Shown: one piece after another, positions 26,238-42,831 of the stretch
How positions within the stretch are numbered: position 1 is the first letter of the stretch
Layout of the letters: each line of letters starts with the position of its first letter
The notes under the pieces: model-generated
What the model was told of the DNA's origin: nothing
Databases searched by the model: none
Seen by the model: only the letters and a program-made list of their open reading frames with translations
DNA from: an uncultured Candidatus Saccharibacteria bacterium
GTDB lineage: Bacteria; Patescibacteriota; Saccharimonadia; Saccharimonadales; JAGQNJ01
Assembly: GCA_964590205.1 (NCBI GenBank)
Contig: CAZPVO010000002.1
Coordinates: 1,005-65,004, forward strand
Length of the DNA: 64,000 nt
Reading direction: 5' to 3'
Program-made: the position numbers and the translations under genes

Positions 26238-26314
26238 GGCGGCGTAGCTCAGCCGGTTAGAGCGCAGGACTCATAAGCCTGAGGTCACAGGTTCGATCCC
26301 TGTCGCCGCTACCA
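26238..26314 (+). tRNA. tRNA with CAT anticodon (elongator Met or lysidine-dependent Ile2)
   Basis: GGCGGCGTAGCTCAGCCGGTTAGAGCGCAGGACTCATAAGCCTGAGGTCACAGGTTCGATCCCTGTCGCCGCTACCA. Cloverleaf elements, T-loop GGTTCGATCC, encoded CCA. Confidence 0.9.
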
Positions 26315-26593
26315 CTTCCGAACAAATTGAATCCTCTCAATTTACGGGGAATACATCCGACAAATAAAAAGACCCACGCATGATGGGTCTTTTATAATTT
26401 TTAGAGATTGATTAATCTTCGCTGAGGATTTGATCTATTTCTAAAATTCTTTTATCTGTAGTTGGTAACAGTTCGTATGCTAATTCCATTTTTTGGTGCC
26501 CTTTTTATTGTTTTATTGTTTTTATTTGTTGCAACAATACCCATTATTATACACGTATTTGCTTTTTTGTCAACTATTATGTAATAAAAAGTT

Positions 26594-28513: not shown

Positions 28514-28613
28514 GACCGCAGTATAGCAAACCAGAGGCCATTGACAGGCCTACCTCTGTTTGATAAGATTACTGGGACTAAAATTCAAAGCCTAAAAAGT
28601 TCCGTCACAACGA

Positions 28614-28688
28614 AGCGGGGTGGAGCAGCGGCAGCTCGCGTGGCTCATAACCACGAGGTCGCAGGTTCGAGTCCTGCCCCCGCAACCA
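28614..28688 (+). tRNA. initiator-type tRNA-Met (CAT)
   Basis: AGCGGGGTGGAGCAGCGGCAGCTCGCGTGGCTCATAACCACGAGGTCGCAGGTTCGAGTCCTGCCCCCGCAACCA. Closely resembles E. coli tRNA-fMet (GCGGGGTGGAGCAGC...CCCCGCAACCA) and has an unpaired 1:72 position. Confidence 0.85.
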
Positions 28689-30237
28689 AGTAAGAATTTA
28701 AAGCCCTTTCGGGGGCTTTTTGTATTGAAATACATCTGTAAAGCTCGCTTATTTCTGAGGTTCCAAACTTATGGCTTGATGAGTCATACACTACACCCCT
28801 TGGGAACAACATGCTTTGGAACCTAATTTGCAAGTCAACCTCTGAAGAAGCCCATTGCTTGTCTACATTCTCCATAACGTTTATAGCTTGCTCAATGTCG
28901 GTTTCACGAATCATTTGCTGTTGTTCTAGCTTTGTTAAGTCAGATGTCACTTCAAGCTTTTGATTATCTAGGTCGGCTATATACGCGTCTTTCTCGTCTT
29001 TTGTAAGTTCTTCAGCAACGAACTTATCAATTGCCTTACTTCGCAGTTCGGATATTTTGTTTAGCTTTTCTCTGCTCAGGCCTATCCTTACATTAAGACT
29101 ATCTAGTGCAGCATTAGACTCTTTAACAAGTACGTGCTTATAAACCTTCAAGATTTCGCTAGAGGGTTTAATTTTTTCGAGCATCTTTTCAAACTCGTTG
29201 TGTACTATGTCCGCCTTCACCGACGGAACTTTACCAACACATGACTTTCGAGCACAGTGATACCTTGGAGATGACTGTCCATTACCCGTGGTTGGTGCAG
29301 ATGAGTATAGTGATTTATTACAATTACGGCATAGCAACAAACCACGTAAAGGATACCTGCTGTTTATGTGGTCATGTCTTTCACCTTTTCGAGAGTTTTC
29401 ACCATAAAGCAGGTTATGATTTCGTTTAAAGACTTCCTCACTAATAATGGCAGGGTGCTTACCTTGGACATTTTTGTAGTTTGTAAACTTATCCGATACA
29501 TAACCTGCATACGTCGGGTTCTTTATTAGCCTATGTATACTGTCTTCGCCTAAGAATTTATCATATCGGCTCTTAAGCCCAACTTGCTTTGCATAACGTG
29601 TGAGCTCAGCCTTTGAAATATCACCAACACTAAATCTTTCCAATACACTCTTTACTTTATCAGCCATAGGTGTCTTTCTAAGTGTTGGTCTTAGCTTGCC
29701 TAAATCATTAGGAATTTTATTAGGCAAATAGCCAACAATAGGTGGGTGCTGATAGAACCCCTGCATTGCTAATGAACGCATGTTATCAATTGTCACTTCA
29801 GCTTTTCCTTCATTATCAAGTTGGCCAAGAGCAACAAGCAGATTTTCCATAAACCTCCCCTCTTTTGTGTCGTTAACAGCTGGTTCTGTTGCTGACCGAA
29901 TCGTTATCCCGCTTGCCCTCAACACGAGTTTGACGTTGGTGGTGTATGAATCGTTATCACGAGAGGCTCGCTTCATGTTGTAAACAACCCAGTGGTTTAT
30001 TTCAGACTTGTGTTTAATGCAGTAGTTCAGCAGTGCTTGTAATCCATCACGCTCTGTATTCTTGCCAGACTTAGCAATATCTTCAAACCATTTAACTATG
30101 TGTATATTGTTTAGGTCAGCAAATCTCTGAATACTGTCACGTTGCGTAATAGGACTTTCGTTATTTACCTGCCTTTGTGACGATATCCTTATGTAAGCGA
30201 CTGCTTTTTTCTTGGACTCATTCATACTTGTTTCCAT
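28645..30237 (-). CDS. large serine recombinase (integrase)
   Basis: Resolvase catalytic N-terminus AVAYIRISSQRQ, a recombinase domain, a zinc ribbon CRNC...RYHCARKSC, and a coiled-coil. The last ~15 codons are antisense to the tRNA. Confidence 0.9.
   Translation of the reverse strand: METSMNESKKKAVAYIRISSQRQVNNESPITQRDSIQRFADLNNIHIVKWFEDIAKSGKNTERDGLQALLNYCIKHKSEINHWVVYNMKRASRDNDSYTTNVKLVLRASGITIRSATEPAVNDTKEGRFMENLLVALGQLDNEGKAEVTIDNMRSLAMQGFYQHPPIVGYLPNKIPNDLGKLRPTLRKTPMADKVKSVLERFSVGDISKAELTRYAKQVGLKSRYDKFLGEDSIHRLIKNPTYAGYVSDKFTNYKNVQGKHPAIISEEVFKRNHNLLYGENSRKGERHDHINSRYPLRGLLLCRNCNKSLYSSAPTTGNGQSSPRYHCARKSCVGKVPSVKADIVHNEFEKMLEKIKPSSEILKVYKHVLVKESNAALDSLNVRIGLSREKLNKISELRSKAIDKFVAEELTKDEKDAYIADLDNQKLEVTSDLTKLEQQQMIRETDIEQAINVMENVDKQWASSEVDLQIRFQSMLFPRGVVYDSSSHKFGTSEISELYRCISIQKAPERALNSYLVAGAGLEPATSWL
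28699..28722 (+). terminator. intrinsic terminator after tRNA-fMet
   Basis: AAAGCCC-tttc-GGGGCTTT followed by TTG. Confidence 0.6.
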
Positions 30238-30262
30238 AATACACCATGTAATTTATTGGAAC

Positions 30263-30418
30263 CTATAATTTGAGTGATTTTCTAGCTATTAGGGTTAGTA
30301 CATTAACTAGTTCTTGCACTTGGTGGTCGGTTAAGTAACTATACTTGCGTCCTAGCAGTTTTTTAGCCTCTATGACGGTAGTTTTGGGAGGTTCATGCAA
30401 GTCATTGCTATTGAGCAT
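30263..30418 (-). CDS. possible small protein (51 aa), not in ORF track
   Basis: Own translation MLNSNDLHEPPKTTVIEAKKLLGRKYSYLTDHQVQELVNVLTLIARKSLKL. The ATG overlaps the upstream gene stop by 11 nt. It fills the gap before the recombinase. Confidence 0.3.
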   Translation of the reverse strand: MLNSNDLHEPPKTTVIEAKKLLGRKYSYLTDHQVQELVNVLTLIARKSLKL

Positions 30419-30713
30419 CAGAAGCCCTCACAGGGCTGCTAAATGTACGAGCCTCTTTCACATACTTGCTGAATAATTTTCCTGGGAAGTCTCCTTCTGA
30501 GGCACGCCTACGCCATTCGTTGACCTGTGCATAGCCAAAGTCTTTTACTACACCGCAATACCATTTTCGAAACTGCACATTGTTATATTCAGCAACCAAT
30601 TCGTCAGCAAGCTTATCAATGGCTTCAATTGGTAACTGTTTAATTGAAGTGTCCGATGAACTGTCTATTGGCAGTTGTTTGTTACTTAAAATATTTGAAA
30701 TGCCAGTACTCAC
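30408..30713 (-). CDS. hypothetical protein (101 aa), element-borne
   Basis: ORF only. No family recognised. Confidence 0.5.
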   Translation of the reverse strand: MSTGISNILSNKQLPIDSSSDTSIKQLPIEAIDKLADELVAEYNNVQFRKWYCGVVKDFGYAQVNEWRRRASEGDFPGKLFSKYVKEARTFSSPVRASDAQ

Positions 30714-30766
30714 ATCCCAATTGTATGTACGACTTCAGAATGTAGCTGCCCCAACAAACAAAATTA

Positions 30767-31159
30767 TTATCTGGTCTTTAAATATTTCTTATTTCTGTTG
30801 TAGTATTTTTGTAAGTCAAATTCAGTTAAGAAGGGATATTCGCCATCAAAGTATGGTATCTCGTCGTTCGCATATGCTTCATGTATGTTTTTAAATGTTA
30901 GTTTACGTTTCCTTAAGAAATACACGCCATATAGTAAAACAAGGTCTTTCGGTGGCTTCACTCTTTTATAGTGCTTTTTCCCTGTTACTTTTGCACGTGC
31001 ATCACTAAACGTATCCCATGCCTGAAGAAACTCTTCCTTCGTAGCATCAATCCCAAATGAAATAATAAATTTCTGCTTCTCAACGTCGTAGTCCATTCCT
31101 ATATTTTTATTTGGAATGTTCTTTTTCATTTTGAACCAGAGCTTTAACCGAAGCTCCAC
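30767..31159 (-). CDS. hypothetical protein (up to 130 aa), element-borne
   Basis: ORF only. The start is uncertain (internal Met at MKKNIPNK). Confidence 0.45.
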   Translation of the reverse strand: MELRLKLWFKMKKNIPNKNIGMDYDVEKQKFIISFGIDATKEEFLQAWDTFSDARAKVTGKKHYKRVKPPKDLVLLYGVYFLRKRKLTFKNIHEAYANDEIPYFDGEYPFLTEFDLQKYYNRNKKYLKTR

Positions 31160-31484
31160 CTAGTATGGGTTTTACCTCTTGTAATGTATGTTCAAAATCA
31201 TGTTTTAGACTAAATTCGTCTTTCTTTTTTCTTTCTAGATACTTTAATGCCAAGTCAGGACTTTTCTCAAACGATTTAATAACAGAAGCTCTGGCTTTAA
31301 GAATTGGCATTTCTTTTAACTGTGTTTTTCGCTCCAGAAACTTTGGGTTCTTCTCTTGAAATTTATAGAGTGTTGCGGGGGCTATATTAGCATATAAGGT
31401 GGCTTCTAAGTCTGTACAGCCTAATGCAAACGCCTCTTCAAGCTTGCTTCTCACTTCGCTTGTCATTATTGTTGGTCTACCCAT
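31107..31484 (-). CDS. HTH protein, terminase-small-subunit-like / DNA-binding
   Basis: The ATG at 31484 is preceded by AGGAGGG. MGRPTIMTSEVRSKLEEAFALGCTDLEATLYANIAPATLYKF resembles N-terminal HTH domains of phage small terminase or transposase-associated proteins. Confidence 0.45.
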   Translation of the reverse strand: MGRPTIMTSEVRSKLEEAFALGCTDLEATLYANIAPATLYKFQEKNPKFLERKTQLKEMPILKARASVIKSFEKSPDLALKYLERKKKDEFSLKHDFEHTLQEVKPILGGASVKALVQNEKEHSK

Positions 31485-31500
31485 ATTTTTAACCCTCCTA

Positions 31501-32118
31501 TTAATGCAATGTCGTAGCGATGTCAACACACTCATTAATTGCTTGAGTATTGCTAACACCAACATATGAGGTGCATTGGTTTCTAGCATTATTACTGTCT
31601 GGTATATAAAAATATACGTAAAAGTATTCAGTTATAGGCTGGGCGTAGGTCTCTTTTGTAGAGTGCCCATCGCTGTACGTACAATTTTTACTCCAGCCGT
31701 TTACACCTTGAATATGTCCAGCACCGTTTCTATATAAAGAATGTGTCTCATACTGCACATCATTGTTGTTGGTACAACTTATAAGTGTTGGGCTAGAGAT
31801 AGTTTCCTGAGTTGGAGCTGACGGATTATTGCTACTAACTGAAGGTTTAATGCTACTACTTGTTGAAGACGATTGACTATTATTATCAGATTTTGTTGTT
31901 TGTGTTGTAGGATTGGTTGTAGTTGTCTTTTCTTTAGCATTAGGTTGTTCATTTGACGTTTGATTTTGGTTGCTTTGATTATTTAATGAATCATGGGATT
32001 TTAAGGCATAGATACCTACTGGCAGGGATATTAGCAATCCGAAAAATAGACCAATTAATAGCTTGGTGTTATTTTTAGTAACTTTTTTTATACCGCTAAG
32101 ATATTTCTTCACACCCAC
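31501..32118 (-). CDS. membrane-anchored/secreted protein with S/T/N-rich linker
   Basis: N-terminal TM helix (LLIGLFFGLLISLPVGIYAL), then a low-complexity QTSN/ST-rich stretch, then a Cys-containing globular end. Confidence 0.55.
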   Translation of the reverse strand: MGVKKYLSGIKKVTKNNTKLLIGLFFGLLISLPVGIYALKSHDSLNNQSNQNQTSNEQPNAKEKTTTTNPTTQTTKSDNNSQSSSTSSSIKPSVSSNNPSAPTQETISSPTLISCTNNNDVQYETHSLYRNGAGHIQGVNGWSKNCTYSDGHSTKETYAQPITEYFYVYFYIPDSNNARNQCTSYVGVSNTQAINECVDIATTLH

Positions 32119-32327
32119 ATTATATACTTAAAAAATCAAGTACTGTTAGCATGGTTAGATACTGTATACGCCGGCGTATATGTATATACGGCAAATAATG
32201 AAGATATCCAATTAAGGAGTCTCTTTATGTTTTCGGTCAATATTGGTGATACAATCGAAATAGCAATGTGAGTATGAGTTGTATAACATCCATCGCCCAC
32301 ATGCTTATTAACAAGGTGGCAAACTCA

Positions 32328-32993
32328 CTAAGCAGCTACGGGCTTAAGCAACGATTTATCATTGTTCCTAGGGCTGTTTACGTCCCTGCTAACCTCATAG
32401 ATTTCTAGACCATTGTCTTCGAACGGAAACAGTAGTGACTCTAAGTTCTCAGGTTTGTCGTTTGATGGCTCAATCCAAGAAGCTTCGGCTTCAGGATGTA
32501 ATATCACTGGCATTCTATTGTGAATTGCCTTCATCTCTTTATTCGGTTCTGTGGTCATAATCGAATACGTTTTAATTTCATGACCATCTTTGCTTTTCCA
32601 ATTATCCCAGATCCCAGCAAAGGAATATAATTCGATCTTTTTAGGGTGAATGTAGAAGGGTATTTTGCCGTCTTTAGAAGCCCGCCACTCGTAGAAACCT
32701 GTGGCTGGCACTAAACATCGGTGATTTAGCACAGTACGCTTCCAGAAACCCCCAAAGGCCTTGTCAGCTCGAGTGTTAATAAGCTCTTTAACTAAGTCTT
32801 TTCCCAGCATACGCGGTATACCCCATTGCATGGTTTCAATACGCCGCTTTCCGGTTTCGTCTTCAATAATTACAGGCATTTCCTGTGAAGGCGACACATT
32901 GTAGTTTTCCCGAATGTCTTTCGGTTTGTTATCCACTTTAAAACGCTTCACAAGCTTTCCGGTTTTCACATCGAGTGTATAACGACCGCACAT
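32328..32993 (-). CDS. SOS-response-associated peptidase (SRAP / YedK-HMCES family)
   Basis: True start MCGRYTL (catalytic Cys2) at 32993. Family-typical ...FYEW... and ...MPVIL... motifs. Confidence 0.85.
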   Translation of the reverse strand: MCGRYTLDVKTGKLVKRFKVDNKPKDIRENYNVSPSQEMPVIIEDETGKRRIETMQWGIPRMLGKDLVKELINTRADKAFGGFWKRTVLNHRCLVPATGFYEWRASKDGKIPFYIHPKKIELYSFAGIWDNWKSKDGHEIKTYSIMTTEPNKEMKAIHNRMPVILHPEAEASWIEPSNDKPENLESLLFPFEDNGLEIYEVSRDVNSPRNNDKSLLKPVAA

Positions 32994-33019
32994 ACTACTA
33001 ATTGTACTAGGAGATTGTA

Positions 33020-33286
33020 ATGAGAGAAAAAGTAAATCAAGAAGTAAGCGTTGTGATGTACTATTCAGCCAAGAAAAAGCAGGCAGTGCCACACATGCTG
33101 TATTGGCAGAATAAGGACTATATGCTCGGCAAAGTTGATTATTACCACAACTACATGGAGGGACGGGAGAAACAACATATTTTCGAGTTGTGCGACAAAG
33201 ACACTTCGCTGTGGTTCAGGCTGAGGCTAGATAGCAGTAATTTACACTGGACGCTGGAGGCTATTAGCGATGGACTTGCAACTTAA
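33020..33286 (+). CDS. hypothetical protein (88 aa) preceding the Y-family polymerase
   Basis: ORF overlapping or abutting the polymerase start. Its position is analogous to UmuD/YolD-type accessory genes, but no motif was recognised. Confidence 0.45.
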   Translation: MREKVNQEVSVVMYYSAKKKQAVPHMLYWQNKDYMLGKVDYYHNYMEGREKQHIFELCDKDTSLWFRLRLDSSNLHWTLEAISDGLAT

Positions 33287-34505
33287 CGATATAGACCCGC
33301 TGATAATGCATGTAGACCTCAATAGTGCCTATGCAATCATTGAACAACAGGCTAATCGATTGATTAGACATAAACCTGTGGGTGTTGCAGCATATGACTC
33401 ACCTGGGGGTTTCATAATCGCCTCATCATATGAAGCAAAGCGTTTGGGCATTAAGCTCATGAGAATAAGAGAGGCACGAGATATTACCAAGGACTTAGTA
33501 ATACTTACTCCTGACCCTGAGAAATACTTTGATGCACATAGAAGGTTTAGGGAGGTATTGGAGCGATATACAAATGAAGTTACACCAAAGTCTGTCGACG
33601 AGTTTGTCGTTGAATTCACACGCTCAAAAACTGTCAGAGAGGGCAAGAGCCTTGTTGAGGCGGGGTTTAAGATAAAAAGAGATATAAAGAAGTCGCTCGG
33701 CGAATACGTGACCGTAAATATAGGAATTGCACCGAATAGATTCTTGGCTAAGGTGGCTGCCGGTATGGATAAGCCAGATGGACTTGACGTAATTACGGCC
33801 AAAGACATCCATAATATATATGGGCAATTAGACCTTATGGATTTACCAGGTATTAATCATCGCTATAAAGCACGACTGAATATTGCGGGTATATATACTC
33901 CATTAGAATTTCTAAATGCACCCATGCCAAAACTTAAGAAAGAAGTCTTCAGAAGTATCGTTGGTTACTATTGGTTTCTTCGATTACGCGGATATGAAAT
34001 CGACTCGGAAAAGTTTAAGACTAAAAGCTTCGGAAACGACTATGCAGTTGGCGATAAGACAAGTGACCCAGATAAAGTAGCAAGATTGTTAATGAAGTTG
34101 TGTGAGAAGACTGGCAGAAGGCTCCGCAAACACGACTATCAAGCTTCTGGAGTATTCCTTGGCCTTGGGTTTGAGAATGGAACTTGGTGGGGAAAGAGCA
34201 AACGTTCTAAGAGCTACTTATACTCAACACAAGATATATATTTGCATTGTGTAAGGTTGATGAGAACAGTTTCATTCCCTGCCCGTGTAGTGCATATAAA
34301 CATCTCAGTGTTTGGGCTAGTCCCAGCAACACCAGTACAGCTTGGACTATTTGATGGCACAAGGTTAGATACAAGGTCGCTCGCAATCGCGTCTGACCGT
34401 GTTAATAATAGGTATGGCGAGTATACTGTTATACCTGCAACCATGGCAAACATGCAAGATACAATAATCAAGCGAGTGCCCTTCGGAAGCGTTCGTGATA
34501 TCTAA
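33270..34505 (+). CDS. Y-family DNA polymerase (DinB/UmuC-like)
   Basis: HVDLNSAYAIIEQ (catalytic Asp block), SVDEFVVEF (SxDE block), GIAPNRFLAKVAAGMDKPDG, LPGIN. Alternative start at 33306. Confidence 0.85.
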   Translation: MDLQLNDIDPLIMHVDLNSAYAIIEQQANRLIRHKPVGVAAYDSPGGFIIASSYEAKRLGIKLMRIREARDITKDLVILTPDPEKYFDAHRRFREVLERYTNEVTPKSVDEFVVEFTRSKTVREGKSLVEAGFKIKRDIKKSLGEYVTVNIGIAPNRFLAKVAAGMDKPDGLDVITAKDIHNIYGQLDLMDLPGINHRYKARLNIAGIYTPLEFLNAPMPKLKKEVFRSIVGYYWFLRLRGYEIDSEKFKTKSFGNDYAVGDKTSDPDKVARLLMKLCEKTGRRLRKHDYQASGVFLGLGFENGTWWGKSKRSKSYLYSTQDIYLHCVRLMRTVSFPARVVHINISVFGLVPATPVQLGLFDGTRLDTRSLAIASDRVNNRYGEYTVIPATMANMQDTIIKRVPFGSVRDI

Positions 34506-34932
34506 AAACTTTGCTGTGCATAACCGTTTTCACAAGATTGAATTATGTTATATACTCAAATTAATCAAGCCAGTGGTTTGAGCGTCTAAGGAAATAAATA
34601 AACCCCAATCTAAGTGAGAGGGGTTTATTTATATCATTTTTCTTTTTTTGCCTTTCGGCCAGGAGGGTTACCAAGCTTCGACCAGCAATATCATCTAAGG
34701 AAATTAGATGGGTAACCCCCCAAAAAATAAATGTGCCCGTAAGCTTGGTGGTACTATTACTAACCACCGAGCTTATAGATACATTTGCATTTAAAAGTTT
34801 GGAATGTTTGTAATAGTTTCTGGTCGAAGAGCCACCCCTTACGACTATAGACATCATAGACTTGCAGACAAGCTAAAGCAATAACTATAACGGTGTATTA
34901 TTTAGTACATTAAGGCCGTATCAGTTCTTGAC

Positions 34933-35050
34933 GTTCTAGTCCCCTGCGGTAGAGTAACTTAACTGTAGTTTTCCCCTAGAGAGCTGTAACCATCTTACTA
35001 GCTCCCAACTGATTTGGTTCCAATTCGAGTGTACGTGGGCAACCATAAGC
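34933..35050 (+). repeat. tRNA-fMet-like 118-nt repeat, copy 1
   Basis: Aligns end to end with copies at 36426 and 37243. Ends in GGTTCCAATTCGAGTGTACGTGGGCAACCATAAGC. Confidence 0.8.
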
Positions 35051-35055
35051 ATGTT

Positions 35056-35087
35056 GACCCTTGTTCAGACAGGGGTCTTTATTTTTT
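35056..35087 (+). terminator. intrinsic terminator after repeat copy 1
   Basis: GACCC-ttgttcagaca-GGGGTC followed by TTTATTTTTT. Confidence 0.7.
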
Positions 35088-35090
35088 CAC

Positions 35091-35630
35091 TTATTGTGGC
35101 CCTAATTCTGTCCTTGGGTCTATACCCAATGCTTTGTAAATTTCAGCTCTTCGCTTTGAGTTAAAATCTACCTTTCCATGCTCGATGCGGTTAACTACAA
35201 AACGAGAGCTATCGCCTAAACGCTCCGCAAATTCTGTTTGGTTTAATCCAAGTTCCTTTCGAGTAGTTCTTACCCGCTCAGATATTTCTTCAGGGGTTTC
35301 TTGCCAATATTCATGCACAGTTACATATCTATCTAGGCCAAGAGTAGCTGTTATGTCAGCAGCCGCACGTAGCAGCTCTGCCTGGCTGGCTTCATCACCT
35401 CTAGGCAAGCCCGCTTCTCTAAACGAAAGCTCTCTTAAGATTCCGATAAGAGCTACATTATAGTCACTTACCATATCTCTCTGCATGGCTATTCTATAGT
35501 CTTCAAGATTATCTGCTACTTCTATCAGTGGGAAAACCTCATCATTGAAAGGGTGGGCCTCACATGGAATTAGGTGACTGGGGTCTAGTGGCGGCATTGA
35601 ATACGGTTTGACTTCATGTTGTTCTGGCAT
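35091..35630 (-). CDS. XRE-family HTH regulator with unknown N-terminal domain
   Basis: C-terminal LGLNQTEFAERLGDSSRFVVNRIEHGK. Divergent from ORF 35739. Confidence 0.7.
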   Translation of the reverse strand: MPEQHEVKPYSMPPLDPSHLIPCEAHPFNDEVFPLIEVADNLEDYRIAMQRDMVSDYNVALIGILRELSFREAGLPRGDEASQAELLRAAADITATLGLDRYVTVHEYWQETPEEISERVRTTRKELGLNQTEFAERLGDSSRFVVNRIEHGKVDFNSKRRAEIYKALGIDPRTELGPQ

Positions 35631-35683
35631 AGTTATTCCTTATTTCTTAACCTTGACATCCTAACAAACACATTCCATAACTA

Positions 35684-35703
35684 ATATGAATTGTTTTTCA
35701 TAT
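35684..35703. promoter_or_regulatory. inverted repeat ATATGAA-N6-TTCATAT in divergent promoter region
   Basis: Perfect 7-bp arms between the divergent XRE and wHTH genes. Candidate operator. Confidence 0.4.
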
Positions 35704-35738
35704 TTTTTGAGCTTTTTATCTAATGCTATGCTTAAGGA

Positions 35739-36416
35739 ATGGTACAAAATGCAGGCTTATTAATGCTCCGTTCATTTCAGCAACAGAACTCTCGAACATT
35801 TGTTGAACTATGCAAAGAAGCAGGTTACCCAACAGACTTGGGGGGCTATTACTTGCGTCAACTTCTGAACAGTCAATATTTGGAAAAGGGCAAGCGTGGT
35901 GAGTACCTTTTAGCTGCAAAAGGACGACAATACCTAGCCACCACAAAAGACAAGCCCAAAACAGCTCCTAGGCCACACATATTAGTGGTTCCTACTGTTG
36001 GTAAAAATTTTGTAGCTATTGAGCGTTCGGCTCAACCTTTTCTAAAAAGGAAGGAATGGCCAGCAACATTGATACACAGTGGAGAAGCAAAAGATGAAGC
36101 CGTTCACAGGTTACTAGCAAAACAACTAACTCAAACCGATAACATCACATATTGTGGGGTCTTTCGAAGATTAGATTATTACGAAGACCAGCTTTTTGAT
36201 GACAAGTTATTCTTTGTACACAAAGTTGATTTACAAGATATCCCAACACCTAACGATGCCAAGCATAAAATAGTTCAAATTAATGAGGGTGAAATAGAAA
36301 GGTTACAGAATAAATCTAGGAGCTTATTAGATATTTTGCACTTCGTAAACTCTGGAAAAAGCTACCAGGAACAAAAGTACACCCTGGAATACGATGACTT
36401 TGAACCCACCTCATAA
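35739..36416 (+). CDS. winged-helix regulator-like protein with C-terminal Nudix-like (degenerate) domain
   Basis: The N-terminus is MarR/wHTH-like (FVELCKEAGYPTDLGGYYLRQLLNSQYLEKGKRGEYLL). The C-terminal part has only a degenerate Nudix-box-like stretch (SGEAKDEAVHRLLAKQL). Confidence 0.45.
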   Translation: MVQNAGLLMLRSFQQQNSRTFVELCKEAGYPTDLGGYYLRQLLNSQYLEKGKRGEYLLAAKGRQYLATTKDKPKTAPRPHILVVPTVGKNFVAIERSAQPFLKRKEWPATLIHSGEAKDEAVHRLLAKQLTQTDNITYCGVFRRLDYYEDQLFDDKLFFVHKVDLQDIPTPNDAKHKIVQINEGEIERLQNKSRSLLDILHFVNSGKSYQEQKYTLEYDDFEPTS

Positions 36417-36425
36417 ACTTCAGAA

Positions 36426-36543
36426 GTTCTAGTCTGCTGCGGTAGAGTAACTTATCTTTGGTTCACCCCTCGAGAGCTGCAACCACCTAACTAGCTCTCT
36501 ACTGATATGGTTCCAATCCGAATGTACTTGGGCAACCATAAGC
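36426..36543 (+). repeat. tRNA-fMet-like 118-nt repeat, copy 2
   Basis: Starts 10 nt after the ORF 35739-36416 stop. Aligns with copies 1 and 3. Ends GGGCAACCATAAGC. Confidence 0.8.
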
Positions 36544-36549
36544 ATTTTG

Positions 36550-36575
36550 ACCTCTGTCTAATCGCAGAGGTTTTT
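36550..36575 (+). terminator. intrinsic terminator after repeat copy 2
   Basis: ACCTCTG-tctaatcg-CAGAGGT followed by TTTT. Confidence 0.7.
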
Positions 36576-36627
36576 CAGTAAATTATTCGAGTATTTTGAC
36601 ATATTGAGTGTGCTATTATAAAACTTA

Positions 36628-37233
36628 ATGACTAACCCAAATCAGCAAGCAGCTGAACAGCCCTCTACCCCACAGCAAGCTGCAGGTATATTCACACAAA
36701 TTGGTGAGTTGACTGCATTCCAAGGCAAGCAATACGGTGATACCCATTCTTTTAGTGATAAACAAGTCGAAGTTCCAGACAGTATTGCTACACATTTCCC
36801 TAAAGCCGAAGCCGATAGTGAAAGTATTGATACAAACATGTATGTGAGTCAACATTTTGACCGAGAGTCAGGGCAGCCTCAAAGGACTGGTGTTGTCGGC
36901 ATCGTTACATTTACCCAAAGTGAAAGACACGATGCTGATTTAATTTATGCTACGCATGTTAATTATCACGTCATCAGTGATACTGGTGAAACCTTTCGTC
37001 TGGAAAGACATGTTACAAACACTGAACATGGCCCCCATAAAGTTGCAGAACATGCACTTGGTAGAGCAGCAACTCGCGAGGATATACAACGTAAACTAGA
37101 TGAAACCAGAGAATTATTAGCTAAGGTGCGGGAATCGAGAAAAGTTGAGGCAGAGTTAGGCTTGCTGACAGTATCGTCTCGTGAAGCAGAACAAATCTTG
37201 AAGGTTCTTAGTAAATATAATGAGGCAGAATAA
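36628..37233 (+). CDS. hypothetical protein (201 aa), element-borne
   Basis: ORF only. No family recognised. Confidence 0.55.
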   Translation: MTNPNQQAAEQPSTPQQAAGIFTQIGELTAFQGKQYGDTHSFSDKQVEVPDSIATHFPKAEADSESIDTNMYVSQHFDRESGQPQRTGVVGIVTFTQSERHDADLIYATHVNYHVISDTGETFRLERHVTNTEHGPHKVAEHALGRAATREDIQRKLDETRELLAKVRESRKVEAELGLLTVSSREAEQILKVLSKYNEAE

Positions 37234-37242
37234 AGACCACAG

Positions 37243-37357
37243 GTTCTACAATTATGCGGTAGAGTATGCTAACTGATGCTCAACTCTAGAAAGCTGTAAC
37301 CACCTAACTAGCTCTCTATTGATTAGGTTCCAATTCGAATGTACCCCCGCAACCAAG
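37243..37357 (+). repeat. tRNA-fMet-like repeat, copy 3 (most tRNA-like)
   Basis: Starts 10 nt after the ORF 36628-37233 stop. Its 3' end CCCCCGCAACCAAG is identical to the tRNA-fMet 3' end plus flank. 5' TGCGG can pair with 3' CCGCA. Confidence 0.8.
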
Positions 37358-37363
37358 AAAAGA

Positions 37364-37390
37364 GTTTCACCATTATGGTGGAACTTTTTT
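37364..37390 (+). terminator. intrinsic terminator after repeat copy 3
   Basis: GTTTCACC-attat-GGTGGAAC followed by TTTTTT. Confidence 0.7.
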
Positions 37391-37442
37391 CTTTATTGGA
37401 GCAAGATTCGGTTCTGCGACTTGGCTGCTTTAGTAGACAATA

Positions 37443-37521
37443 GTCGCAGGTTCGGTCGTTAGTCTGTTGCCCGAGAGAATCTCGGCGTACAGATTAACGT
37501 GCGATTGTCCTGCCCCCGCAA
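37443..37521 (+). other. split remnant of tRNA-fMet 3' half (possible old att junction)
   Basis: GTCGCAGGTTCG ... 52-nt insert ... GTCCTGCCCCCGCAA, then AAAGTAAAAT, which resembles the tRNA flank CCAAGTAAGAAT. Confidence 0.55.
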
Positions 37522-37573
37522 AAAGTAAAATCCTCATCGTAAGATAGGGATATTATTTTGGTATGATTAGTTT

Positions 37574-38317
37574 ATGCAGATACTTGAAACGAATAACTTC
37601 GAGGTAGCAGCTAATATAAAAGGCGATCCTAATGCAAAGCAAGTCGTCATATTAATGCCAGGCCGTTTGGATACTAAGGATTATGCAAACTTTGTTAGTC
37701 ATCTAAACGTTTTAGCCAGCGAAGGTTTTTACGCAGCAGCAATAGATGTACCAGGAACCTGGGACAGTCCAGGAGACATAGCCAACTACTCAACCAGTAC
37801 ATATATACAGACCGTAAACGAGTTGATTGATTACTTTGGCAATCGCCCTACCGTACTTCTTGGGCACAGCCGTGGTGGCGCGACAGCAATGTTAGCATCT
37901 GAAAATCCAAACGTTGTGGGCCTTGTGCTGGTAAATGCGGCCTACGGCAATCCATCAGCCCCAGATCAGGCAAGTGTTGAAAGCAATGTACATCCAGAAG
38001 GCAGAGACCTGCCACCTGGAAATGTGCGTACTAAAGAGCAAAAACATTTTGACCTACCAATGAACTATTTTGAAGATGGGGCTAAATATAATCCGTCGCA
38101 GGCGCTTGCTAATTTCGACGGCCTTCGACTTTTAATTCACGGGACAAAAGACGAATTTGTTCCCATAGACAAAGTGAAATCAATTTACAGCAGCTTATCT
38201 GATCCTAAAATGTTTCTTGAAGTTGACAGCGCACACGATTATCGCTTATACCCAGAAGTTATTGAAGAAGTAAACGAAGCATTGCGAGATTTTATTGGTA
38301 AGTTGGTTGTGGGTTAG
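37574..38317 (+). CDS. alpha/beta hydrolase
   Basis: Nucleophile elbow GHSRGG and C-terminal acid/His region (...GTKDEFV...SAHDY). Confidence 0.7.
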   Translation: MQILETNNFEVAANIKGDPNAKQVVILMPGRLDTKDYANFVSHLNVLASEGFYAAAIDVPGTWDSPGDIANYSTSTYIQTVNELIDYFGNRPTVLLGHSRGGATAMLASENPNVVGLVLVNAAYGNPSAPDQASVESNVHPEGRDLPPGNVRTKEQKHFDLPMNYFEDGAKYNPSQALANFDGLRLLIHGTKDEFVPIDKVKSIYSSLSDPKMFLEVDSAHDYRLYPEVIEEVNEALRDFIGKLVVG

Positions 38318-38900: not shown

Positions 38901-40073
38901 CTAGTTTTTTGCTTTGACAGGTCGTTTAGCCAAATTGTATTGAGGTTTTGGCATGTGTGCGTGAAGTTCAAGCAGCAGTGAGCCAACACCAATCCATACA
39001 GTGGCAGCAAGCACGAAAATGCCGATTATCGGTACAAACAATAATACGAGTAAAACTGCTGAGCCAACGAGCATTATGAGCAGGGCATTTGTTGAACCCC
39101 TTAACATCAATCGACCAAAGTAATAGGCCGCGACGGGACCACAAAGCAGCATAATGACTAGCCATACCAGTCCTCCAAGAATCGCTAACGGAATTCCAAT
39201 GATTGTAACAGCAATCAAAAATAGCACCGGTGGTACCACGATCTGGGCGACAAGTCCTACTAACAAGGCTTTCCAAGGTCGAGGCATTGCCCGGCTGCTG
39301 GCGTTATCGAAGAATCGAGGCATGATCAGTACCAAAATCATTGCCGTGAAGAACATGGCAAAAAATGCATAAATCACAAAGGCAAGCTTTATACCCGTGC
39401 CAATCACAAGCAAATTCGGGCCATTGTCCTTCTGCTGTTTTGGAATTGTCTGATTGACAGCTCCGCCAACCGTTGCACCATTATCCTTAGTCAATAAATT
39501 GCTACTTGTGTAATCAACATTGCCGCCAATGTGTGCTGTAGAAGTTAAATGCAAATCATCTGTCGAAGTTTTAACATTTCGGCCAACATTGCCAGCAATC
39601 GTTAAGCTTCCGCTGCCAGCTACCACATCCCTGCCCACAGAACCATTAAGATTTGCCATAGCGTTTCCAAGAGTTAGATCACCGCCAATTTTGGCATTTG
39701 AGTCAAGCACAAATGATTGTGCAATAACTGTAGCATTGCCGCTAACATCACCAAGGAGATTAACAGTTTGGCCAGCAACACGAATATTACCGTTAATCTT
39801 GCCGCTAACTGTTACAGTTTGGCCGGCGCAAATAATGTCGCCATTAACTGTCCCCGAAACCGTAACTGTTTGGCCAGCGCAGTAGATGTCGCCATTAACC
39901 TGGTTGCTAACCGTAACCGTGTTACCAGCTGCATAAACACTCGAATCCGTTACTGGCTGATTTACATCCGCATTACTTCCCGAATAAAAACTCTGCGCGC
40001 TAGCCATGCCAACAATTGACATACCCAGCACTATTGTTAGTGCAGCTGCGAGGGCCACTAATAATCTCTTCAT
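38901..40073 (-). CDS. secreted beta-helical repeat (bactofilin-like) protein with C-terminal multi-TM anchor
   Basis: Signal peptide, then repeated NGDI.CAGQTVTVSG.VNG units, then about 4 C-terminal TM helices. Confidence 0.55.
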   Translation of the reverse strand: MKRLLVALAAALTIVLGMSIVGMASAQSFYSGSNADVNQPVTDSSVYAAGNTVTVSNQVNGDIYCAGQTVTVSGTVNGDIICAGQTVTVSGKINGNIRVAGQTVNLLGDVSGNATVIAQSFVLDSNAKIGGDLTLGNAMANLNGSVGRDVVAGSGSLTIAGNVGRNVKTSTDDLHLTSTAHIGGNVDYTSSNLLTKDNGATVGGAVNQTIPKQQKDNGPNLLVIGTGIKLAFVIYAFFAMFFTAMILVLIMPRFFDNASSRAMPRPWKALLVGLVAQIVVPPVLFLIAVTIIGIPLAILGGLVWLVIMLLCGPVAAYYFGRLMLRGSTNALLIMLVGSAVLLVLLFVPIIGIFVLAATVWIGVGSLLLELHAHMPKPQYNLAKRPVKAKN

Positions 40074-42634: not shown

Positions 42635-42710
<76 letters not shown>

Positions 42711-42831
42711 CGTCAGACATCACGACAACCTCACCCTAATTTTGGTAATCGAGTGGCCAAAATCTGGTGAGGTCTTTTTGTGCCTTCCTTTTCCACAAAT
42801 TGAATCCCCTCAATTTGCGGGGTCAAGTTTC

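Follow-up and report, generated by a model that had tools for sequence, protein, structure and literature searches.

A 64,000-nt stretch of a Candidatus Saccharibacteria genome (hereafter the window; positions are those of the whole stretch) carries 8,667 bp of inserted DNA, 28689-37355, at the 3′ end of an initiator tRNA gene. This DNA is very probably a composite mobile element in the integrated state, which a large serine recombinase (LSR, the integrase) inserted within the last six bases of the tRNA and whose recombinase gene spans the attachment site attP. Comparison across the family indicates that integration replaces the conserved C-terminal helix of the integrase with a peptide encoded by antisense tRNA, while the helix-coding P arm moves to attR, 8.7 kb away. 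The coordinates of the features are collected in Table 1.

The ends of the insert were located from short repeats and from the reading frame of the integrase. The 14-mer CCCCCGCAACCAAG occurs in the window only at 28677-28690 and 37344-37357 (chance expectation 0.01). Three 135-nt direct repeats, r1 to r3, lie in the distal part of the element, the last of them at 37240-37374. Because r3 joins CCCCCGCAACCAAG, and because a fusion of the integrase at LVA with the tail encoded in r3 measures 550 amino acids (aa), the length of the relative P0051, we take r3 as attR and 28689-37355 as the insert. The tRNA is intact in the integrated state, and its 3′ part serves as the B arm of attL. Across the family the block common to attL and attR is 6-14 nt long and includes TGGT[T/A]G (tRNA positions 71-76) in every case, and the A/T variant at tRNA position 72 agrees between the two ends in 22/22 junctions. 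Family comparison thus narrows the crossover, at six-base resolution, to CAACCA at 28683-28688, which is C71 to A76 of the tRNA. The predicted attP is GGTTCCAATTCGAATGTACCCCCGCAACCAAGTAAGAATTTAAAGCCC and the predicted attB is GGTTCGAGTCCTGCCCCCGCAACCAAGAAAAGAGTTTCACC; the P′ arm of the window and a typical P arm, of the kind found in r1 and r2, together form the palindromic core TACTTGG-GCAA-CCAAGTA.

On integration the native downstream flank of the tRNA is displaced by the P′ arm of the element, which supplies an intrinsic-terminator-like hairpin 12 nt after the tRNA. On its opposite strand the P′ arm encodes the final integrase residues ahead of LVA, the hairpin coding for KAPERAL, so that the terminator sits within the integrase open reading frame (ORF). 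A corresponding hairpin occupies this place in relatives, and the chromosomal B′ arm has the same layout as the P′ arm, with CTTGGT, a T-rich spacer and then a hairpin. The tRNA itself closely resembles Escherichia coli tRNA-fMet in sequence. It begins with A, giving an A1.A72 mismatch; C1 is found in 19/19 related integrase-adjacent tRNA-fMet genes and also at those Saccharibacteria-type empty sites whose tRNA 5′ end was fetched.

The C-terminus of the window integrase reads ...SYLVA-GAGLEPATSWL*, where the last 11 codons and the stop are antisense tRNA and the TGA stop is the complement of U33-C34-A35 of the anticodon loop. The same kind of ending, LVAG.G[LF]EP.T.WL, is present in 106 of the 120 best homologues (51-100% identity, ~525-530 aa), and its variable residues follow the covariation of the T stem. 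Reading through into the antisense tRNA is therefore the normal integrated state. A longer form, of 538-556 aa with the post-LVA helix [QEL]VHSNWN.I..EL.RW..., accounts for 11/120 homologues, including all three circular elements, in which the DNA around LVA reads CTTGGTAGC followed by CCAAGTACATTCGAATTGGAAC. The proteins with the alternative tail are intermixed with those ending in the tRNA, at 77-83% identity, and therefore represent a second state within these lineages and not a separate clade. On the minus strand r1 to r3 code for ..VA[HQG]VHS[ND]WN...RELVRWLQLSR..YSTA*. As the window holds helix-coding DNA at attR and at two internal junctions, attP must lie inside the integrase gene. In its circular form the integrase is ~545-550 aa long and ends in the VHSNWN.I..EL.RW helix. 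Among related tRNA-fMet loci, 17 have the tail-coding P arm upstream of the integrase and in its orientation, at a distance of 3.7-11.4 kb; the elements range from 3.7 to 11.4 kb in size.

The overlap between attP and the integrase gene might be mere genome compaction. The tail would then lack a function of its own and be conserved as the DNA of the P half-site, and directionality would be set, as for other serine integrases, by a separate recombination directionality factor (RDF), perhaps the neighbouring 101-aa protein. We consider this a serious but rather unlikely alternative. Among 28 tails, codons 4-10 show conservation that extends to third positions (CAA 21/28, TCG 16/28, AAC 28/28), as expected of a protein-binding DNA site, and they fit the putative P half-site of the recombinase. 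The tail is modelled by AlphaFold2 (AF2) at low confidence after a linker with a predicted local distance difference test (pLDDT) score <50, and a conserved small protein stands beside the integrase in every backbone examined. However, conservation reaches 31-66 nt from the core, past the usual reach of a serine-integrase half-site, and has a coding signature there. Pairwise differences in codons 11-22 of the same tails are 0.43 at first, 0.30 at second and 0.51 at third codon positions, the last being the most variable, and the ratio of non-synonymous to synonymous differences (pN/pS) is 0.51. R18 is retained in 24/28 tails by at least five different Arg codons, W19 in 27/28 and E15 in 25/28, and these residues together with L22 are kept via synonymous changes. 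The frame is open for at least 18 codons in 29/29 tails examined, and the motif persists in a sister clade at tRNA-Glu despite a different core sequence. From these codon patterns, the tail appears to be under protein-level selection.

Circular members of the family are known at three sizes (4.5, 8.4 and 9.8 kb), all with the alternative tail. L003, L004 and L005, which encode P0051 and come as 8,462-bp contigs from three sequencing runs, are exact permutations of one 8,432-bp sequence once the 30-nt (k-1) terminal overlap is trimmed. L002, encoding P0034, is a 9,845-bp contig with a 30-nt terminal overlap of the same kind, and L015, a contig of 4,668 bp, has a terminal overlap of 127 nt and carries the gene in a long form of 545 aa. 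Apart from the integrase, the L003 circle encodes a weak FtsK/HerA-like ATPase and contains a 92-nt sequence (L003:345-436) that ARAGORN calls tRNA-Trp(CCA) with a long extra segment. L002 carries a restriction-modification pair (DNA methylase and NgoPII-type endonuclease, L002:3137-5167) as well as a MerR/excisionase-type helix-turn-helix (HTH) protein.

Empty sites were sought by scanning Joint Genome Institute (JGI) metagenomes for the 3′ end of a tRNA-fMet with GTCGCAGGTTCG within 75-105 nt downstream, which returned 30 loci. About 22 of the 30 are Saccharibacteria-type empty sites with the architecture of the reconstructed attB, that is, 28614-28688 joined to 37356-37585. Their order is the tRNA, a palindromic terminator, a hairpin (GGTTCTGCGAC, loop, GTCGCAGGTTCG), a 50-70-nt structured insert, GTCCTGCCCCCGC[A/T]ACCA and a second terminator. 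Judged by sequence configuration, occupied, empty and circular states all exist for the family, with 33 occupied loci, ~22 empty sites and three circles; the present element is seen occupied only.

One could also regard the segment as a fixed, immobile remnant, with a decaying or domesticated recombinase and the tRNA read-through as a product of degradation. That this element was seen in the integrated form only would agree with this, as would the two distal modules B and C, which have neither an integrase nor homologues. Yet the recombinase ORF is not truncated and keeps every catalytic and zinc-binding residue, 106/120 homologues read through in the same way, and an intact tail ORF at attR would restore the protein to 550 aa, the length found in circles. 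The family moreover has circles and empty sites, and we hold the remnant to be very improbable.

Several observations weigh against the interpretation of the segment as a mobile element whose integrase exchanges a functional tail. Exact-protein look-ups recovered this element in the integrated configuration only. The empty sites come from related genomes, and none was recovered from the window's own species. The first 10 tail codons are under DNA-level constraint too, so that their conservation partly reflects a binding site, and in the AF2 model the tail is a helix (523-538) at low confidence, pLDDT 50-61. No replication, conjugation or directionality-factor gene is recognisable in the window element. 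Look-ups with the hydrolase, the 201-aa ORF and the 149-aa protein of the left flank returned no contigs other than short ones from this genome, in the integrated configuration. One same-genome contig that breaks inside the tRNA was considered as a junction and was attributed instead to tRNA sequence common between species.

An earlier, sequence-only reading of this DNA had proposed a small integrative element, not a prophage, of ~8.7-8.8 kb at the tRNA and more AT-rich than its flanks. The empty sites, the related circles and the deviant composition agree with that proposal. At 39.9% GC, compared with 43.5% in the window as a whole, the element ranks lowest among 277 sliding windows of 8.67 kb, and its tetranucleotide distance is an outlier (0.028, against 0.015 ± 0.004 elsewhere in the window). 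The comparisons it had suggested have thus been borne out for genomes lacking the insertion (the ~22 empty tRNA-fMet sites match the reconstructed attB), for circular forms (free circles of related elements) and for a GC and k-mer deviation scan. It had missed that the recombinase ORF continues through the attachment site into the tRNA, a feature of the whole family and the point of greatest interest. It had also listed two repeats of tRNA 3′-end sequence, and both are present where it placed them. The 14-nt repeat is indeed the element end. The 15-mer GTCCTGCCCCCGCAA, found in the window only at 28671-28685 and 37507-37521 (chance expectation 0.00), is native at empty sites, and the element ends at 37355 and not at 37521.

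The 15-nt repeat matters for another explanation, in which the segment is a classical tyrosine-integrase island, the serine recombinase is a passenger, and the repeat at 37507-37521 is a displaced tRNA fragment marking the true end. The 3′ ends of tRNAs are the classical targets of tyrosine integrases, and a tRNA-derived fragment is present at 37443-37525. No ORF of 28689-37355, however, matches a tyrosine-recombinase (Phage_integrase-type) domain, and the recombinase ORF changes exactly at the junction. The fragment belongs to a structure (37400-37522) that lies downstream of the tRNA at empty sites too and that the circular elements lack; for this reason the 15-nt repeat is not an element end, and as such an end it was ruled out. 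We give the tyrosine-island explanation almost no credence.

Returning to an element inserted by its LSR, the sequences indicate the following course of events. The LSR recombines within C71-A76, leaving the tRNA whole while the P′ arm replaces the downstream flank. Integration separates the helix-coding P arm, which goes to attR, from the integrase, which then ends in antisense tRNA. The repeats r1 and r2 may record the tandem accretion of two integrase-less modules by the same recombinase, each accretion junction joining the P arm of the newer element to the P′ arm of the older one; duplication is another possible origin. Both are attP-like, r1 with its tail-coding P arm, the core GCAACCA, ACCATAAGCAT and a hairpin. 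Both have the sequence ...hairpin-ATGCTTATGGTTGCC..., which is also found at two junctions of the L008 element (near 1050 and 1601), and modules B and C each end in a P arm. The P arm was also considered as a tRNA-like fold, and this was rejected as the acceptor pairing is inconsistent between copies of the 135-nt repeat (by eye on the alignment).

Loss of the tail on integration might alter the activity or directionality of the enzyme, and one direction of the reaction may depend on the helix. Transcription that converges with that of a strongly expressed tRNA would probably damp integrase expression, and tail loss and damped expression together might stabilise the integrated state. Excision by serine integrases needs a separate RDF. 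As a tentative extension, the C-terminal swap could itself be the directionality switch: the helix-bearing enzyme of the circular form would integrate, loss of the helix would lock the element, convergent transcription against the tRNA would reinforce the lock, and excision or the capture of integrase-less modules would need the helix in trans, which the 38-codon ORFs of r1 and r2 could provide. These free-standing tail ORFs (MLMVA[QH]VHS.WN...) are seen in the arrays of the window and of L008 only, and they might supply the integrase tail in trans. A 41-aa version of the peptide, used as query of the protein collection, found no candidate.

The LSR gene, annotated four codons shorter as P0001, matches Resolvase (PF00239, 5.2e-20), Recombinase (PF07508, 1.4e-7) and Zn_ribbon_recom (PF13408, 3.6e-5), the zinc ribbon scoring 24.5 bits, just below the 25.3 cut-off. 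In a 40-sequence alignment Y15, R17, S19, S20, Q23, R90, S92, R93 and D94 are invariant, as are C303, C306, C328 and C333, and the identification by sequence alone of a large serine recombinase with a YIRISSQRQ motif and a zinc ribbon thus holds. Its placement head-to-tail with the tRNA has to be corrected, as the two genes converge with a 44-nt overlap. Profile searches of the Protein Data Bank (PDB) match 3guv, TP901-1 integrase, TnpX and, weakly, a 500-aa integrase (9iu2, 3.4e-5), and by single sequence only one catalytic domain (3guv) is matched among solved structures. The AF2 model, made for the circular-form relative P0051, includes catalytic, recombinase and zinc-ribbon domains as well as helix E and a long coiled coil, with helices 358-405 and 411-452 inserted between the zinc-ribbon strands (pLDDT ~80-95). 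The stretch that corresponds to the P′ arm is the low-confidence linker, 503-526.

An alignment-based scan with one genome per species gave 45 loci, nearly all from Candidatus Saccharibacteria or Saccharimonadales. The integrase overlaps an antisense tRNA-Met(CAT) in 20/45 (integrase identity at least 50%) and overlaps or abuts an antisense tRNA-Glu (CTC or TTC) in 13/45, twelve of these at 38-44% identity and one, at 31%, in a Planctomycetaceae metagenome-assembled genome; the other 12 run off the contig or have the attP form. The tRNA-Glu sister clade comprises L030-L038, L042, L044, L046, L049 and L050. Where a tail was found among tRNA-Glu clade loci (L030, L034, L048), it is the related LVTLIEANWNLICEEILRW.

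The backbone of the family runs in the order HTH protein, 130-190-aa ORF, 101-aa protein, integrase. This order recurs in the circles L002, where the 101-aa and 130-aa ORFs match by sequence, and L015, where the match was made by eye; the HTH-type ORF of this 4.5-kb circle stands at the position of the 160-aa HTH protein and resembles it by eye, unscored. The 101-aa protein belongs to a family of 73 homologues, all unannotated. It has no Pfam or PHROG match, its AF2 model is a four-helix model (pLDDT 72), and Foldseek against the PDB gave nothing below E = 2.8. It appears as a candidate directionality or replication factor.

The remaining genes are accessory. The sequence-only reading had named SRAP, a Y-family polymerase, XRE and winged HTH regulators; the first three are confirmed, and the supposed winged HTH protein, the 225-aa ORF, has a weak NUDIX match only. 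SRAP (SOS-response-associated peptidase), the 88-aa ORF and the Y-family polymerase recur inside the L008 element at 68-81% identity, the latter two at 79% and 81%, and are therefore cargo. SRAP lies divergently to the other two on the opposite strand in both places (window 32328-34505 and L008:3145-5330), and together they form a mobile DNA-damage-tolerance module carried in two elements of different species. No homologue of the 205-aa ORF was found among the loci fetched, nor any of modules B and C among related loci.

This gene content bears on whether the element is a phage satellite or cryptic miniature prophage, mobilised by packaging, and not an integrative plasmid. The 160-aa protein resembles a terminase small subunit (phrog_4102, 2e-16), the integrase falls in the phage integrase family phrog_95 (7.8e-59), and the size and XRE regulator are reminiscent of phage-inducible islands. 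Domain and PHROG searches of the ORFs found no capsid, portal, tail, large terminase or lysis gene in the element, however, in line with the sequence-only reading, which had seen no capsid, portal or tail genes; the small terminase-like HTH protein is the only such gene. Two scans of IMG/VR, by single protein and by alignment, returned no relative of the recombinase, and a viral origin was set aside as unsupported. The FtsK/HerA-like ATPase on one circle is more like the small integrative plasmids of actinomycetes. We therefore judge a satellite or prophage improbable. Neither a relaxase or type IV system nor an FtsK-like translocase was found in the window element itself.

Table 1. Positions, strands and supporting evidence for the element, its attachment sites and the adjoining chromosomal features.
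Feature	Position	Strand	Evidence or remark
Promoter-like site TTGACA-17-TAAGAT with TG, upstream of tRNA	28541..28569	+	Chromosomal, outside insert
Initiator-type tRNA-Met(CAT)	28614..28688	+	ARAGORN; Rfam 60.3 bits; 1:72 pair mismatched
LSR, integrated form, 530 aa	28645..30237	-	Overlaps tRNA by 44 nt, convergent
attL core	28677..28690	.	14-nt block in common with attR
Intrinsic-terminator-like hairpin AAAGCCCTTTCGGGGGCTTT and T-rich tail	28700..28719	+	Element-supplied (P′ arm)
101-aa protein, uncharacterised family	30408..30713	-	Directly upstream of integrase in window, circle L002, L006, L008, L028, L030
130-aa backbone ORF	30767..31159	-	Weak similarity to 189-aa ORF, same position, circle L002
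160-aa HTH protein resembling terminase small subunit	31107..31589	-	phrog_4102
205-aa low-complexity ORF, secreted-looking	31501..32118	-	ORF call
SRAP, cargo	32328..33092	-	2.8e-64; 68% identical copy in L008 element
88-aa ORF and Y-family DNA polymerase (33270-34505), cargo	33020..34505	+	IMS 4e-29, IMS_C 5e-13
r1, attP-like internal junction	34930..35064	-	
r1 free-standing 38-codon ORF	34936-35052	-	Begins MLMVAHVHSNWN...; ATG; AAGG 5-6 nt upstream
Module B, without integrase	35065..36422 (to 36557 with its P arm)		XRE-family regulator 35091-35630 (-); 225-aa ORF 35739-36416 (+)
r2, second attP-like internal junction	36423..36557	-	
r2 free-standing 38-codon ORF	36429-36545	-	Begins MLMVAQVHSDWN...; GAGG 5 nt before ATG
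Module C, without integrase	36558..37239 (to 37355 with its P arm)	+	201-aa ORF 36628-37233
r3/attR site, P arm and 14-nt common block (37344-37357)	37240..37357	-	Codes alternative integrase C-terminus LVAGVHSNWNLINRELVRWLQLSRVEHQLAYSTA* (37252-37356)
Native B′ flank, tRNA's own terminator hairpin GTTTCACCATTATGGTGGAAC and T run	37358..37399	+	Chromosomal
Native structure like tRNA 3′ half, insert at T-loop position	37400..37522	+	Holds 15-nt repeat

The native structure beyond the B′ flank follows tRNA-fMet in Saccharibacteria at both empty and occupied sites (a subset of L051-L080, L010:6982-7119, L022:2725-2853). It repeats the T arm and the acceptor 3′ strand of the tRNA, with a 50-70-nt insert at the T-loop position; the insert holds a hairpin with compensatory changes at 9/21 predicted pairs, and the 3′ end of the structure changes in step with the host tRNA, the A/T variant at position 72 included. 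It has no Rfam family and could be a non-coding RNA, a second or decoy attB, or a scar. At L067:2527-4243 (the same as L074) two copies flank a 1.3-kb integrase-less insert that ends in a P arm (L067:3967-4062), which suggests that the structure can itself act as an integration site. An Rfam scan found only three tRNAs, with weak matches (e.g. SAM-SAH at 37361-37403) far below gathering scores. The window has three tRNAs with a CAT anticodon within 16.5 kb, at 26238-26314, 28614-28688 and 42635-42710, namely the initiator and two elongator-type (Met or Ile2) tRNAs, and a 28-nt stretch, 93% identical, lies just downstream of the outer two (26322-26349, 42795-42822). The 16-nt repeats with 51-nt spacing at 39572-39878 are inside a 390-aa bactofilin-like/DUF8173 gene (38901-40073, minus strand) and probably reflect a repeated protein motif.

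According to the Islander database paper, serine integrases are not known to target tRNA genes (PMC4383910). We found no description of a tRNA-targeting serine integrase with attP inside its own gene; the coverage of our literature search is incomplete, and earlier work may exist. Serine integrases rank among the major tools of genome engineering and serve as models for unidirectional recombination, and the present family would add a new target class. It combines tRNA targeting with self-alteration on integration, in candidate phyla radiation bacteria, for which the mobile elements defined so far are few. A single stretch of DNA is at once integrase coding sequence, recombination half-site and putative tRNA terminator. 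The two forms (550 and 530 aa) and four predicted att sites make the mechanism testable in vitro, and these elements would offer natural, tRNA-specific integration modules, aimed at a universal and essential gene, for Saccharibacteria, a group that lacks genetic tools and is difficult to manipulate.

In enzyme class and domain order (catalytic, helix E, recombinase, zinc ribbon with coiled coil) the recombinase agrees with phiC31, Bxb1, TP901-1, A118, SPbeta SprA and TnpX/TndX. Like phiC31-type LSRs, it has short att sites, and attP and attB have little sequence in common (6-14 nt in the present family). It differs from them in the tRNA target, in an attP that lies inside the integrase ORF and changes its C-terminus, and in a P′ arm that would also act as a terminator for the target gene, and its sequence is distant from solved structures. 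P4-type tyrosine islands (Islander) likewise insert at tRNA 3′ ends, restore the gene with element sequence and leave a short direct repeat at the far end, whereas the recombinase here is of the serine type and the duplication covers only the last 6-14 nt of the tRNA. The actinomycete integrative and conjugative elements pSAM2 and SLP1 are also 5-15-kb elements found as free circles and integrated in tRNA genes, and the FtsK/HerA-like ATPase of L003 adds to the likeness. They have tyrosine integrases and recognisable replication genes, while the window element has no recognised replication gene and no translocase.

The SSV-type "suicidal" integrases (SSV1, pTN3, pT26-2) are similar in having the site inside the integrase gene, a tRNA target and a gene altered by integration. 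They are tyrosine recombinases whose gene is split into two inactive parts and, according to a 2021 review, self-altering integrases of this type are exclusive to archaea (PMC8371274). The present family has a serine recombinase and Candidatus Saccharibacteria hosts, and the catalytic and DNA-binding domains stay intact while only the ~30-aa tail is exchanged. If the tail swap is indeed a switch, this would be a bacterial serine counterpart of the archaeal enzymes, with directionality set by the protein's own tail and not by a separate protein. In the mycobacteriophages BPs and Brujita attP also lies in coding sequence, and the different C-termini of the free and integrated states constitute a switch (PMC3694055). 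There the split gene is the repressor, the integrase is of the tyrosine type and the lost part is a degradation tag, whereas here the split gene is that of the recombinase itself. This integration-dependent immunity is the nearest bacterial parallel to the family described here.

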